Shown here one piece after another: positions 24,176 to 32,596 of a stretch of DNA of 64,000 nt. The notes beneath the pieces are model-generated. The model saw only the letters and a program-made list of their open reading frames with translations. It had not been told where the DNA came from and searched no databases. The position numbers and the translations under genes are program-made. This DNA is from Parcubacteria group bacterium (GTDB lineage Bacteria; Patescibacteriota; Minisyncoccia; Phycocordibacterales; UBA2135). The DNA lies in contig JACPBB010000002.1 of the NCBI GenBank assembly GCA_016180525.1, forward strand, positions 48,824-112,823, in the 5' to 3' direction. Position 1 is the stretch's first letter. Each line of letters starts with the position of its first letter.

Positions 24176-25666
24176 ATGAAAGAGTTTGATGTGGAAGTTA
24201 CCACAAACGTTGTGGAATATTTAAAACAAAGACATTTTCGTCCATATAAGCGAAGCATTTTAAAGTTATGCCTAAAAATGCTTGAAAAATACACGGGAGA
24301 GAATATTACTATACCCGTCTCTCGAGAGCTTCAATTACTTGGAGGAACATCGGTTTATCTTTGGAATTCAATAGAGACGCTCTACGCACTGCAGTCTTTG
24401 GGTATCGTTTCGCATTTCTCAAAAAATATGCACTACCCAGACGAGCCGCGTCTTCACGGATATAGCGCGGCATATTCAACCTCAGCAAATCGTTCACTAA
24501 GTAGAGCAAGCGGGGTTGATTTCTTTGACAAAAAAAAGGCTTTCTTCCGAATGCTTGGCGAATCAGTTGAGCGGCATTTGTGGTCTTGCACAGATTTTTT
24601 TTCAAGAAATCAAATAATGAAACCTTATAAAGAAATTAAAAATAAATCATTGAATATATTTTTACTTGCCGGATTCACGAAAGAACAAAAAAAACAATAT
24701 AGAGAGCTCCAGCTTACCGAAAATACACCACTTGCGTGGATTCCCGCCACATCACTTGTAAGTGAAAAGAAAATATGGTGTCCAACACAACTATTGAGCG
24801 TCCGTTATTTTAGAGAAAATGTGAGAACGCCAAAGAGACCCGCGAAACCAGAGCCAATGCTGCGGTGGTGTGTTACCACAGGTCTTGCAACGGGAAAAAC
24901 ACTAGAGGAAGCAATCGTTGCTGGGATATTGGAGGTAATAGAAAGAGACGCATTTATGATTACCTTTTTAAATAAACTCTCTCCTCCACTCATAGATTTG
25001 GAATATGTCGCAAGCCAAGACAAAGACATAGATACTATTTTGAAAAAATTTAAACGATACAATCTTGAAGTATATATGATCGCGCTTCCCACTGATTTTC
25101 CTGTACACGTTGTGTTGAGCCTCGTTATTGACCCATCGGGACGAGGCCCGGCTACAAGTGTGGGAGCAAGTGCTGATTTTGATTTAAAAAGATGCATCCT
25201 TGACGCATTATCTGAATCTCTCTCAGTAAGATACAATATAAAAAATAAATACAAGGATCCGATTGATTTGCAACATATTGGAAGAGAAGAGAGAATATTA
25301 TATTGGGCAAAAGAAGAAAACGTGCCTGGTCTTGAATTTTTAACAAAAGGGAAAAAAAATAAAGTTGAGTTAAATAAACAACATGTTTCGCAAAACTCAG
25401 AGATTCGTCATGACAAAAAACAACTTGATACACTTAGAGTAGAATTTAAAAAACAAAATCAAGAAGTATGTTTTGTAGAGCTTTCCTCAAAAGAAACCAG
25501 AAAACTTGGCTTTAGAACGGTTTTTGTGGTTGCTCCGGAAATGCAGCCAATGCACCTTGATGAATCAATCCCCTATTTTGGTGGCAAGCGCCTCAAGGAA
25601 GTACCTGAGAAACTGGGATACAAACCAGCGAAAGAATTAAATAAGGAGCCACATCCCTTTCCTTAA
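24176..25666 (+). CDS. YcaO domain cyclodehydratase (TOMM D-protein-like) with about 100-aa N-terminal extension and C-terminal PxPxP
   Basis: FFRMLGESVERH and GLATGKTLEEAIVAGILEVIERDAF YcaO signatures. The C-terminus ends EPHPFP (PxPxP motif). Confidence 0.85.
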   Translation: MKEFDVEVTTNVVEYLKQRHFRPYKRSILKLCLKMLEKYTGENITIPVSRELQLLGGTSVYLWNSIETLYALQSLGIVSHFSKNMHYPDEPRLHGYSAAYSTSANRSLSRASGVDFFDKKKAFFRMLGESVERHLWSCTDFFSRNQIMKPYKEIKNKSLNIFLLAGFTKEQKKQYRELQLTENTPLAWIPATSLVSEKKIWCPTQLLSVRYFRENVRTPKRPAKPEPMLRWCVTTGLATGKTLEEAIVAGILEVIERDAFMITFLNKLSPPLIDLEYVASQDKDIDTILKKFKRYNLEVYMIALPTDFPVHVVLSLVIDPSGRGPATSVGASADFDLKRCILDALSESLSVRYNIKNKYKDPIDLQHIGREERILYWAKEENVPGLEFLTKGKKNKVELNKQHVSQNSEIRHDKKQLDTLRVEFKKQNQEVCFVELSSKETRKLGFRTVFVVAPEMQPMHLDESIPYFGGKRLKEVPEKLGYKPAKELNKEPHPFP

Positions 25667-25668
25667 TC

Positions 25669-26415
25669 ATGCTTTCTAAATTATTTCACAAAAAAATCAC
25701 AAATGAACGACCATATACACCAAGAGACCCAAAAGATTGGCCGATTTCATGGCGTACCGTGTATTTTAAAGAATACCCAAGATTTGATAGAGTAATGCTG
25801 CCAATAAATTTTTTAGAGCTGAAAAATTTAAAAGATGTTTTAGAAAAAAGACATTCTACCAGAACGTTTGACATAAAAAAAGAAATAACTCTACAGGAAC
25901 TCTCAACAATGCTTTATTATTCAGCCGGCATAAAAGGGACGCCTGGCAAATATAGAGACAAGCCGCAAATGGAAAAAAATAAATCAAGGCGATTCTATCC
26001 GTCCGGCGGAGAGCGATATCCGCTTGAAGTGTACGTCGCAATAAAGCGAATTTCCGAGATAAACTCTGGAATATACCACTATAACTTGCCCAATCACTCT
26101 CTTGAACAATTGTCAGATAAAGAATGTTTAAGCGAGTTTTATGAAGCACTTGGCGAACCATGGGCAAAAGACGCTGCGGTAGTTTTTATTATAACTGCTG
26201 TCTGGGATAGAAATTTTATAAAATATCAAGACTTCGGTTACAACATAATTCTTACCGAGACGGGACATATGGCTCAAAATCTAATTTTACTTTCAGAGTC
26301 TTTGGATCTACACTATTGTCCGTTTATTGGATTTGATAATAAAAAAATAAATAAAATTTTAGACATTGATGAGGAAAATGAGTCTTCTTTATATATGATT
26401 GCAGGAGGAAAATAG
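25669..26415 (+). CDS. SagB-type dehydrogenase (nitroreductase superfamily, TOMM B-protein-like)
   Basis: RHSTRTF and PSGGERYPLEVY motifs. Its start lies 3 nt after the ycaO stop. Confidence 0.8.
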   Translation: MLSKLFHKKITNERPYTPRDPKDWPISWRTVYFKEYPRFDRVMLPINFLELKNLKDVLEKRHSTRTFDIKKEITLQELSTMLYYSAGIKGTPGKYRDKPQMEKNKSRRFYPSGGERYPLEVYVAIKRISEINSGIYHYNLPNHSLEQLSDKECLSEFYEALGEPWAKDAAVVFIITAVWDRNFIKYQDFGYNIILTETGHMAQNLILLSESLDLHYCPFIGFDNKKINKILDIDEENESSLYMIAGGK

Positions 26416-31600: not shown

Positions 31601-31853
31601 AGTGGAAGTTCTTTCGTTATTTAATCCGTCATCTTTTCCGCAAGTGAAGCAGGAAAATTATAGAAATCAAGTATTGAGAGCTTTCAAATGGCTTCTTTCA
31701 ATGCAATATAACGAACTAAATTCATTTTTTATTGACTCTCAAGAAGTTAAAAAATACCTTGGAGGATTTAGGCATGATTATTTAAACACCGAAGCGTGGA
31801 TAGACTCGGCAGCGCATTTTATTTTAGCAATCACTAGATTTTATAAACCATGA
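28605..31853 (+). CDS. 1082-aa multidomain fusion: PRTase-like (PRPP motif) - PQQ-like beta-propeller - AMMECR1 - alpha/alpha-toroid (prenyltransferase/LanC-like) domain
   Basis: IIIVDDLISYGDAV PRPP-binding motif. Repeated YFGSxDGxxYALDxxTGxxxW-type PQQ propeller blades. GSLRGCQIV...DMRF...GWFLPEV AMMECR1 signatures. The C-terminal region is helical and repeat-rich. Confidence 0.7.
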   Translation: MEERLKKIIKSEVFITKKEATIVSQQGRKLDWIFDFRRILLVPEYIDLIAEIFWEKYKDKYPFQVCGLETAAIPLVTAIVMKSVQKEKPINGFFIRKSRKKYGLTRLVEGSINKEKIIIVDDLISYGDAVKKQIQILDELGKKVSEVFVIMHFKQLKYYDFLKNREIILTSLFPLTDFGPPFQKIASDKKYLGDAFIRKWYFKSENPNYFYVIPKSAPAIDGDKIYFGSDSGYFWALNQNDGSVSWKYKVGLGSRGKSVFSSPAVYDNTVYFGAYDGNVYALDTKTGKRKWVFMEADWVGSSPALAPDLGLLFIGLQFGLWNKKGGIAALDLKTGEKKWEHLTSEYTPCSPTYSKEKKIVAIGSNDSAVYLCDAKNGKLLWKFQTKGEIKSSLVFDEKRNTVIFGNFEGKLYVVDIKTGHEVFSYQAEFGIYSTPVIYKDNIYFSSLDKHLYSINLDTQKLNWKFQTGGRILASPIIINDKLYIGSNDERLYEINLDTGEMLAFFQTTERITNKIAYNKGTKQFFLSTFANEIYCLKRIQKNDKKYVQFKLPSLPTVEAFDKNEKEFALALSRKTLALFLHAKNKNNKLDRNIQIPQKLLSKSFVGVSFWMYGSLRGCQIVRGKKIYDAIIEATKRAAQDMRFKSLNIIDLDVIRIQISIISNKWDEIDKKRIKNLEINPMAGYFLSSKEGIGWFLPEVFNIVPFANMEQLVFQLAIKKAKISPELLADKETTIYSFSTDDFMEGKNGNILDLEGPIVKTEIETTEKKVVGAAKRAADWMLPLMDKDGGLVTILNPYGKIISHYDWARTIFSGWVLAEFGRMFNQESHIQAARNNFEYNKKNIFDDSVHIKNKLLVLSYLGQQALSLSYLPEALLCADAIVTQLQNEPFHPLTFSQIGSFLGTMALRGNKKYLNYALQCATAVKNSFDERGTNGIPRSIAEYAELVNTLSILYGCTGEKKHADASKEMALWILKNQLESGAFKNTESSNFSYTRGTSKAVEVLSLFNPSSFPQVKQENYRNQVLRAFKWLLSMQYNELNSFFIDSQEVKKYLGGFRHDYLNTEAWIDSAAHFILAITRFYKP

Positions 31854-32596
31854 GCAGTAAACAAGAAACAATTGAGCAAATACGAAAAAAATTGGACTCT
31901 CTGTCTGTTCCAAAAAAAGAGTTGGAGCGCCTCTATGCCATGCTGGACATTTCATTGCTCCCTGTGGCTCAACAACCAAAACGGCCCGCCTTACAAGTGC
32001 CACATTACTTATATATGCCTGGACTTAAGGCGCGACCATTTCATGATAAAGGTCAATTTGCTTTTGTGACACATTTGGAAAATGCTTATGCAGACATTAA
32101 AAGAGAATTTGATTTAGTGAATAAACAAGAATTGGTACAAGAGCATCGAGAAACAAAGCAAAATGTTATCCGCGGCGCGTGGGGTGAGTTCAATATTTAT
32201 AATTTAGGCAAACGTTCCGCTTTGAGCGCACTGGCTCCCCGTACCCTTGAGGTTCTACAAACCATTCCTGGTACAACTGAGATGGGCTTTGTTTATTTTT
32301 CGGTCTTATACCCAAAAACTTTTCTTCGCGCACACTTTGCTCCTTTTAATTTTAGATTAAGAATTCACCTACCCTTATATGTACCCCCTATGTGCGGAAT
32401 GCAAGTGGCATGGGAAGAGTATGCGTGGCAAGAAGGTATCTGTGTTGTTTTTGATGACTCTTTTCAGCATGCGGCGTGGAATAAGAGTAATTTAATACGC
32501 GTGGTGCTCCTCGTAGATTTTTGGCACCCTGATGTAACAAAAATTGAGCGTCAAGCGCTTTCTGAAATTTTAAAATCTAAAATTTTAAAGTTTTGA
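31850..32596 (+). CDS. aspartyl/asparaginyl beta-hydroxylase family protein (cupin, LpxO/CinX-like)
   Basis: Conserved FHDKGQF...WGEF...FSVL...HxD-type cupin core. ATGA overlap with the upstream gene. Confidence 0.75.
   Translation: MSSKQETIEQIRKKLDSLSVPKKELERLYAMLDISLLPVAQQPKRPALQVPHYLYMPGLKARPFHDKGQFAFVTHLENAYADIKREFDLVNKQELVQEHRETKQNVIRGAWGEFNIYNLGKRSALSALAPRTLEVLQTIPGTTEMGFVYFSVLYPKTFLRAHFAPFNFRLRIHLPLYVPPMCGMQVAWEEYAWQEGICVVFDDSFQHAAWNKSNLIRVVLLVDFWHPDVTKIERQALSEILKSKILKF

Follow-up and report, generated by a model that had tools for sequence, protein, structure and literature searches.

A YcaO–SagB gene island in a Parcubacteria-group genome, with a phosphoribosyltransferase–propeller protein as conserved partner, and its probable membership of a modular modification system

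We analyzed a 64,000-nucleotide stretch of DNA labeled by NCBI as a "Parcubacteria group bacterium" metagenome-assembled genome (MAG) (assembly GCA_016180525.1, contig JACPBB010000002.1; the window, in whose own numbering coordinates are given), focusing on a gene island centered on a YcaO cyclodehydratase and a SagB-type dehydrogenase. The island is a real and coherent system that resembles the pathways of azole-containing ribosomally synthesized, post-translationally modified peptides (RiPPs), with an undescribed conserved partner, leader type and recurrent tailoring modules. The partner is a phosphoribosyltransferase (PRTase) domain joined to a β-propeller, hereafter PRTase-propeller. Positions 19735–32596 probably represent one instance of a modular protein- or peptide-modifying system widespread in Patescibacteria, for which Gly/Cys/Asp-rich segments of two membrane proteins, W263 and W299, would be the substrates in this organism.

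Organization of the island and its YcaO–SagB core

The island consists of two divergent operons on either side of the intergenic region 24018–24176 (Table 1). The + strand operon encodes YcaO, SagB, a methyltransferase, a DegT-family aminotransferase, a 1082-aa fusion protein that begins with PRTase-propeller, and an Asp/Asn β-hydroxylase-family oxygenase (AspH). A first-pass annotation had described these six genes as a tightly coupled operon. The six co-directional open reading frames (ORFs) were confirmed in their positions, as were the 4-nt ATGA overlaps between the methyltransferase and DegT genes and between the fusion and AspH genes; the gap between the YcaO and SagB genes, given there as 3 nt, is 2 nt, and the remaining neighbors are 42 and 24 nt apart. 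The domain identities proposed for all six products were borne out by profile searches. The system is larger than six genes, with four more on the − strand, from 24018 down to ~19735, which encode W263, W299, a TPR protein and a short-chain dehydrogenase/reductase (SDR). The + strand products would be cytoplasmic enzymes, and the − strand operon would supply substrates and helpers. The G+C content of the island is low, 0.34–0.38 over ~20–32 kb versus 0.41–0.46 in the directly flanking sequence.

The motifs noted in YcaO at the first pass are all present, as MLGESVER, IERDA and the C-terminal PHPFP. With a PF02624 score of 164.6 bits (cutoff 25.7) and this C-terminus, the protein is a YcaO of the azoline-forming type found in thiazole/oxazole-modified microcin (TOMM) and linear azol(in)e-containing peptide (LAP) clusters, and the SagB that adjoins it, as in those clusters, scores 147.8 against TIGR03605 (cutoff 78.4). 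Of the profile thresholds proposed as a check, these two were passed and that of TIGR03604 was narrowly missed (217.9 against 219.25). All 57 of 57 related YcaO proteins end in PHPF-x, and SagB is adjacent in 51 of them.

Clusters of YcaO with a nitroreductase-type partner and a precursor of ~84 aa have been reported from the candidate phyla radiation (CPR), with 110 LAP clusters in 93 CPR genomes (51 Parcubacteria; Sharrar et al. 2020, PMC7298704). The host and the YcaO–SagB core are thus not new, and the first-pass view that such a cluster would be unusual in a streamlined genome did not hold, while the guess of a streamlined genome itself fits the label of the MAG. Literature searches returned no publication linking YcaO with PRTase, propeller, AMMECR1 or DegT, or a RiPP with a PRTase, in keeping with the earlier statement that DegT, AMMECR1 and PRTase are not known TOMM components.

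The island shares with LAP/TOMM clusters such as those of microcin B17 and streptolysin S, and most closely with the CPR LAP clusters (PMC7298704), a YcaO with a C-terminal Pro-rich motif directly beside SagB and a Gly-rich, Cys-containing candidate substrate encoded alongside; the CPR LAP hosts are likewise CPR bacteria. It differs in that no E1-like, Ocin-ThiF or RRE partner was found among the genes between 17468 and 33747 with Pfam and NCBIfam sequence profiles, and one classic TOMM component is therefore missing. Its candidate substrates are membrane-anchored proteins of 263 and 299 aa rather than short peptides, and the leader is a transmembrane (TM) helix followed by an AxA/D motif, with no dedicated protease or ABC exporter. 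PRTase-propeller is the conserved partner here, and a set of DegT, methyltransferase, SDR, AspH and AMMECR1-barrel was found for no TOMM in the literature searched. The initial label of a TOMM/RiPP-like system thus stands as regards YcaO and SagB and falls short as regards the E1-like/Ocin-ThiF component. The standalone YcaO of bottromycin likewise has no recognizable E1-like or RRE partner; bottromycin clusters differ from the island in that they are not known to have a SagB-type partner acting on many Cys or a PRTase-propeller, and in having a follower peptide where the island has an N-terminal TM leader.

Related loci and candidate substrates

We compared ~150 related loci (individual ones are designated by L numbers). 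A genome scan with an alignment of the PRTase-propeller module yielded 80 loci, nearly all from Patescibacteria with a few from Bryobacterales/Terriglobia, in which features were counted within 10 kb. YcaO is encoded at 46 of these loci, SagB at 46 and both at 45. At 41, there is an ORF of 75–135 aa that combines a TM helix, a spacer, the motif A-H-A-D-[AV]-P and a G/C/S/D-rich tail and usually adjoins the YcaO or PRTase gene; a membrane-anchored TPR-like partner directly follows the precursor gene at 58 loci. None of these features is present at 11 loci, which for the most part are short contigs or come from non-CPR genomes. Order and orientation of the genes vary from locus to locus, and this variation speaks for a functional link and not for inherited synteny. 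Co-occurrence in relatives, which the first-pass annotation had proposed to examine, was accordingly found for YcaO, SagB and PRTase-propeller (the 45 loci above), with accessory genes recurring elsewhere, and not for the six-gene operon as such, whose synteny is not conserved in relatives. In family-profile searches, neither the precursors nor the partners nor PRTase-propeller fell into a curated family.

The composition of the precursor tails (cores) differs between loci with and without YcaO. By statistics that ignore phylogeny, cores at loci with YcaO contain more Cys (median 4 versus 2, p = 0.004) and more Cys+Ser+Thr (29% versus 18%, p = 0.0005), and less Asp (14% versus 23%, p = 0.0016). 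In Acidobacteria metagenomes, 14 of 19 loci of the AspH-PRTase-propeller fusion encode an adjacent protein of 370–480 aa with a C-terminal (GDGG)n repeat, and the other 5 have no flanking sequence. These neighbors suggest that PRTase-propeller tracks Gly/Asp-rich tails and that YcaO and SagB are added where residues of the tails can be cyclized. In the acidobacterial examples (L094–L122, for instance L094:3745–4896 and L102:8476–9717, and L083, L085 and L087), a Cys precedes the long (GDGG)n tail and YcaO is absent; they have the look of a system, so far unannotated, that modifies Asp-rich tails.

Judged from sequence, the best candidate substrates in the window are the divergently transcribed membrane proteins W263 and W299. 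In a six-frame translation of all 64 kb, Gly-rich Cys/Asp/Ser segments and the AHADxP motif are confined to these two proteins, whose genes diverge from that of YcaO, and no short precursor occurs anywhere in the window, whose small ORFs have neither the motif nor a Gly-rich tail. W263 consists of a TM helix, a ~30-aa spacer, AHADTPPPPPPPGCGGGSGGGC and a 180-aa domain. Its leader has the signature of the 75–135 aa precursors of the 41 loci, which is also present in L090 and L091. The family of the W299 domain comprises 159 representative clusters, mostly of ~500-aa proteins with the usual order TM helix, Gly-rich segment, W299 domain, TM helix, AHADxP, W263 domain. W263 and W299 thus appear to be two halves of one functional unit, because both domains usually sit in one protein; the two C-terminal domains show no similarity to each other in BLASTP. 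Gly/Cys-rich stretches precede the W263- and W299-family domains in many relatives, and proteins of this type occupy the precursor position in L008, L018 and L079.

Two further forms of precursor were observed among relatives. In one, a Hint-like domain is joined to a Gly/Cys-rich segment (L003:8974–9807, L004:7242–8048 and L005:9013–9807, on the − strand; L029:354–1124; L048:4080–4985; L049:2134–2949). The order is TM helix, AHA, G/C core and CFLP...VVHN in L003–L005 and L029, while the G/D tail of L048 and L049 is preceded by the Hint-like end ("VHN"). The domain was assigned from the CFLP...VVHN motifs, its Pfam PT-HINT score of 23.3 being under the cutoff of 27.7, and suggests that the modified segment is released by Hint-like self-cleavage in those relatives. 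In the other (L026:9241–9885; L044:1–612, − strand), the G/C-rich segment runs into a conserved C-terminal domain with the motif ICTELYRQG.

The gene after that of W299 encodes the TPR partner. Homologs of this protein lie beside the precursor in L008, L013, L014, L027, L030, L043 and L089, and a 550-aa TPR protein in L091 was matched to it by position alone. Most other loci have an unrelated TM and TPR-like family at this position; homology between the two families was considered and rejected (hhalign probability 16%). We also rejected a C39-like peptidase assignment for the N-terminal domain of the partner, for which the profile matched only TPR proteins in the PDB and the would-be catalytic positions are not conserved (Gln-Ser in the window, His-Asp/Asn in relatives). 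Possibly also part of the system is a small protein encoded downstream of AspH and paralogous to the C-terminal domain of the TPR partner; L008 carries an equivalent paralog at 1223–1651. Its ORF is preceded by a perfect sigma70 consensus, TTGACA-16-TATAAT, at 32763–32790, in a promoter scan whose overall count was no higher than in shuffled controls.

Table 1. Features of the island and its immediate surroundings (window coordinates)
Feature	Position	Strand	Size (aa)	Evidence and remarks
Terminator-like hairpin	19735..19753	−		Just 3' of the SDR gene, where the − strand operon probably ends; weak, from a consensus scan only
SDR-family oxidoreductase	19814..20560	−		PF13561, 179 bits; last gene of the divergent operon
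Membrane-anchored TPR partner	20605..22251	−	548	N-terminal TM helix, conserved domain with GVPY...GNNY motifs, TPR repeats, C-terminal domain of ~120 aa
Candidate substrate W299	22309..23208	−	299	TM helix, Gly/Asp/Cys-rich segment, conserved domain of ~200 aa without known-fold match
Gly/Asp/Cys-rich segment of W299, DSSGDGADGGGDGGCDSGCADHDGG	22996..23070	−		2 Cys, 7 Asp; predicted disordered
Candidate substrate W263	23227..24018	−	263	TM helix, ~30-aa spacer, AHADTP motif, poly-Pro, GCGGGSGGGC, C-terminal domain of ~180 aa
Leader/core junction of W263, AHA/DTPPPPPPPGCGGGSGGGC	23773..23838	−		Sole AHADxP motif in the window
YcaO cyclodehydratase	24176..25666	+	496	PF02624 and motifs; N-terminal extension of ~120 aa, C-terminal PHPFP
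SagB-type FMN dehydrogenase	25669..26415	+	248	TIGR03605; nitroreductase fold
Class I S-adenosylmethionine-dependent methyltransferase	26458..27483	+	341	PF13649, 29.9 vs 27; translationally coupled to DegT
DegT/DnrJ/EryC1-family pyridoxal phosphate-dependent aminotransferase	27480..28580	+	366	PF01041, 309.9 bits, residues 13–358
Fusion protein	28605..31853	+	1082	Two parts, below
OPRTase-like PRTase domain and PQQ-like β-propeller	28605..30230	+		Fusion residues 1–542; signature module of the system
AMMECR1 domain and (α/α)6 barrel (toroid)	30270..31853	+		Fusion residues 556–1082; similar to sugar epimerase/isomerase and glycoside hydrolase folds
AspH, Asp/Asn β-hydroxylase-family Fe/2-oxoglutarate oxygenase	31850..32596	+	248	PF05118, 134.2 bits vs 22.6
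Small protein	32846..33277	+	143	Signal-peptide-like N-terminus; paralog of the C-terminal domain of the TPR partner, 32% identity, E 1e-12

The fusion protein and the tailoring modules

In the alignment of homologs, the PRTase domain of the fusion has the invariant loop for phosphoribosyl pyrophosphate (PRPP) and the catalytic loop. Since these motifs are conserved and yet the score is below the PyrE cutoff (79.4 against 106.8 for TIGR00336), the domain is OPRTase-like and not PyrE. With the orotate PRTases (PyrE/UMPS), it shares the type I PRTase fold, the RK..K.YG...EG loop and the DD..S.G PRPP loop; in contrast to them, PRTases of the island type are always fused to an eight-blade-like PQQ-type propeller and occur in the context of peptide modification, not pyrimidine synthesis. 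More than 1300 PRTase-propeller homologs were found, either alone or fused to AspH (the commonest fusion, in hundreds of proteins), formyltransferase, AMMECR1 or sulfotransferase, and the full 1082-aa architecture was found in this organism only. With so many homologs that have no assigned function and a tie to Gly/Asp-rich tails in two phyla, PRTase-propeller is a concrete lead to new enzyme chemistry. A rhodanese adjoins PRTase-propeller, with or without YcaO, in L003–L005, L010, L019, L020, L023, L029, L031, L038, L042, L045, L063, L065, L070, L073, L074 and L078, usually paired with a DsbA-like thioredoxin (Thioredoxin_4) that is absent beside the rhodanese in L019, L020, L023, L031 and L038. 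The pair, which is absent from the window, may point to disulfide chemistry or sulfur transfer in these variants.

The AMMECR1 domain scores 45.4 against a cutoff of 25, and below cutoff with TIGR04335 (50.6 against 99). A PDB sequence search with the adjoining toroid gave no match, and only 11 homologs of the AMMECR1-barrel were found among 5.8 billion proteins. An AMMECR1 domain is the feature that the island has in common with AmmeMemoRadiSam systems, and radical SAM genes flank the AMMECR1-toroid genes of L088 and L089; unlike in those systems, the island AMMECR1 is fused to an (α/α)6 barrel and PRTase-propeller, and neither a Memo nor a radical SAM gene was found in the island or elsewhere in the window. 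The radical SAM genes beside the AMMECR1-barrel/YcaO genes of the two relatives (L088:8977–9906, L089:3618–6271), one of which encodes a SPASM domain, recall the AmmeMemoRadiSam association.

The other tailoring enzymes belong to broad families. The two best, weak family matches of the methyltransferase are the α-keto-acid β-C-methyltransferases ApyS and 2-ketoarginine methyltransferase, to which it aligns near full length; the scores, 69.8 against 400 and 68.7 against 425, do not reach the NCBIfam equivalog cutoffs and indicate resemblance only. ApyS is the α-keto-acid β-C-methyltransferase of aminopyruvatide (PMC11117315). As in the known pairs of such a methyltransferase with an aminotransferase (2-ketoarginine methyltransferase and its transaminase; ApyS), the island methyltransferase is coupled to an aminotransferase, and the pair recurs in L090; unlike in those pairs, its score of ~69 bits is far under the cutoffs of 400–425 and the aminotransferase is of the DegT (sugar) family, not of an amino-acid class. 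The DegT protein, a PF01041 member over its full length, matches the keto-sugar aminotransferases PseC (199 bits, cutoff 423) and WecE-like proteins (188 bits), reaching no equivalog threshold. The best named matches of AspH are the lipid hydroxylases OlsC (95 against a cutoff of 450) and LpxO (63 against 500), both below the equivalog level, so that it is assigned to the general PF05118 family. The SDR resembles glucose 1-dehydrogenase.

Of the relatives, L008 is the closest, a MAG from Kaiserbacteria whose PRTase-propeller part is 72% identical. It shares the divergent trio of W263-like, W299-like and TPR genes, as well as YcaO, SagB and PRTase-propeller, the last as a standalone protein; the chromosomal locus is the same, with RuvA, Mur ligase and LTD genes downstream in both. 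It has a PaaK-like ligase in place of the methyltransferase–DegT pair and neither the AMMECR1-barrel nor AspH. The exact six-gene set was found in this organism only and, given the genes present in L008, is a modular system elaborated in a lineage-specific way.

The accessory genes recur in other combinations. In L089, the genes for YcaO, SagB, an 83-aa precursor and a TPR protein come immediately after an AMMECR1-toroid gene, and P0131 is a single protein that fuses the toroid to YcaO. The three closest DegT homologs with usable contigs (54–56% identity) all belong to YcaO or PRTase-propeller clusters: in L090, the precursor is divergent from the methyltransferase and then DegT, followed by PRTase-propeller; in L091, DegT is divergent from YcaO, precursor, TPR protein, methyltransferase and SDR; and in L093, YcaO is divergent from SDR, a pair of genes for a thiamine pyrophosphate-dependent E1, and DegT. 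L018 holds a methyltransferase and an SDR, and AspH is adjacent in L030, L054, L056 and L067. An rve-family transposase (L090:2466–3347, − strand) lies between the methyltransferase–DegT pair and the PRTase-propeller gene and suggests that accessory modules are mobile or disrupted by insertion sequences.

Proposed pathway and alternative readings

We propose the following pathway. The ATP-dependent YcaO would cyclodehydrate the four Gly-flanked Cys of W263 and W299 (GCGGGSGGGC and GGCDSGC) to thiazolines, which SagB would oxidize to thiazoles; this is the most likely fate of these residues from the sequences of the enzymes and segments. For AspH, β-hydroxylation of Asp residues in these segments is most likely. 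The propeller of PRTase-propeller, a component that nearly all relatives have in common, may bind the Gly-rich segment, and the protein would then either recruit fused or adjacent tailoring enzymes or transfer 5-phosphoribose from PRPP onto the segment, two roles that are about equally plausible. The methyltransferase–DegT pair, the SDR and the AMMECR1-(α/α)6 barrel would be recurrent optional tailoring modules acting on a keto group of a sugar or of an α-keto acid; the matches of the methyltransferase and its coupling to an aminotransferase point to an α-keto acid, and the chemistry of keto-sugars is suggested by DegT, the SDR and the epimerase-like barrel. Finally, the modified protein would be inserted or exported via its N-terminal helix, and W263 possibly cut by signal peptidase at the conserved AxA/D. 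The A-x-A/D junction fits the −3/−1 rule of signal peptidase I, which suggests that export and cleavage proceed without a dedicated protease or ABC transporter.

A more far-reaching version, which we put forward as speculative and rather doubtful, is that the OPRTase-like PRTase-propeller marks an undescribed modification, shared by Patescibacteria and Acidobacteriota, of tails or linkers that are rich in Gly/Asp/Cys and belong to secreted or membrane-anchored proteins; the reaction may be a transfer of 5-phosphoribose from PRPP. In this organism, the SDR, DegT, the methyltransferase and the epimerase-like barrel would act further on the ribosyl group, giving a surface protein with thiazoles and an amino-sugar-like decoration.

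Several observations weigh against W263 and W299 as azole-modified substrates and against the pathway as drawn, every step of which we infer. Both proteins are long and have only two Cys each in their Gly-rich segments, quite unlike the short core rich in Cys/Ser/Thr of a classic TOMM, and these segments may be no more than flexible linkers. Co-translational insertion, if driven by the N-terminal helix, would place the segment outside the cell, beyond the reach of an ATP-dependent enzyme. The YcaO is slightly under the TIGR03604 cutoff and lacks the E1-like, Ocin-ThiF or RRE partner, and a profile search with its residues 1–120 matched no family. About one-third of the long loci hold PRTase-propeller without YcaO, which points to a role of this module that is independent of azole formation, and the core-composition statistics take no account of kinship among the loci. 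To our knowledge, no PRTase has a peptide as its substrate. For DegT-family enzymes and AGE-like barrels, the known substrates are sugars, and this points to a sugar chemistry that the proposed pathway leaves without a definite place.

That sugar chemistry is the core of one alternative, in which the island would mainly be a sugar, nucleotide or envelope pathway: the PRTase, SDR, DegT, AGE-like barrel, methyltransferase and LpxO/OlsC-like hydroxylase would assemble or modify a moiety of phosphoribosyl or amino-sugar type, either for the envelope, independently of YcaO, or for the peptide, giving a glycosylated or ribosylated azole RiPP. It is in line with the PseC and WecE-like matches of DegT, the PRPP motifs kept in the PRTase, the kinship of the SDR to glucose 1-dehydrogenase, OlsC and LpxO as best named matches of AspH, and the E1 pair beside SDR and DegT in L093. 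Yet every equivalog score is far under its cutoff, and profile searches revealed no glycosyltransferase or nucleotidyltransferase among the island genes. Moreover, the DegT clade, the toroid and PRTase-propeller are repeatedly linked, and once fused, to YcaO and precursor genes, and a pathway independent of the peptide is improbable because of this linkage; we consider the alternative as a whole unlikely.

The island could also be a classic secreted LAP antibiotic pathway, whose short leader-core peptide is encoded elsewhere in the genome or was overlooked, with W263 and W299 as unrelated surface proteins and the other enzymes tailoring the peptide. The precursor cores are Gly-rich and contain Cys and Ser, in which they resemble microcin B17. 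Most relatives use short precursors of 75–135 aa, and a CPR LAP cluster has one of 84 aa (Sharrar et al. 2020, PMC7298704). This possibility appears quite improbable to us in view of the absence of any such small ORF from the 64-kb window, the exact family leader motif in W263, and the Gly/Cys-rich stretches and the precursor position (L008, L018, L079) that the W263/W299 families keep. A chance juxtaposition of unrelated housekeeping genes is scarcely credible: no relative has the exact six-gene set and the closest one lacks four of the six genes, but every component recurs with YcaO or PRTase-propeller in independent loci of varied arrangement, fusions join the toroid to YcaO and both AspH and AMMECR1 to PRTase-propeller, and the genes are translationally coupled and share the low G+C content of the island. 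We thus retain the reading of the island as an instance of a modular system acting on W263 and W299.

CPR genomes are tiny, and many nonetheless keep this multi-gene system, which suggests that it is important for surface biology or host interaction. If the substrate assignment is true, YcaO/SagB chemistry would act on membrane-anchored proteins and on peptides with Sec-like leaders, widening the scope of azole installation. A further source of uncharacterized tailoring reactions lies in the modules that recur, namely DegT, methyltransferase, SDR and AMMECR1-barrel.

Outside the island, the window contains ordinary bacterial genes (PolA, RuvAB, PBP1, PilM, Mur ligase). A defense-system reading of the region was tried and rejected, as PADLOC models gave only a generic methyltransferase match (mad2, E 4.7e-11). 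On the + strand, genes for a PrkA kinase (3135–5183) and SpoVR (6585–8105), with two ORFs between them, resemble the PrkA-YeaH-SpoVR stress operon. A second low-G+C stretch at 54001–58000 of the window, with 0.32–0.34, lies below the values of the island.

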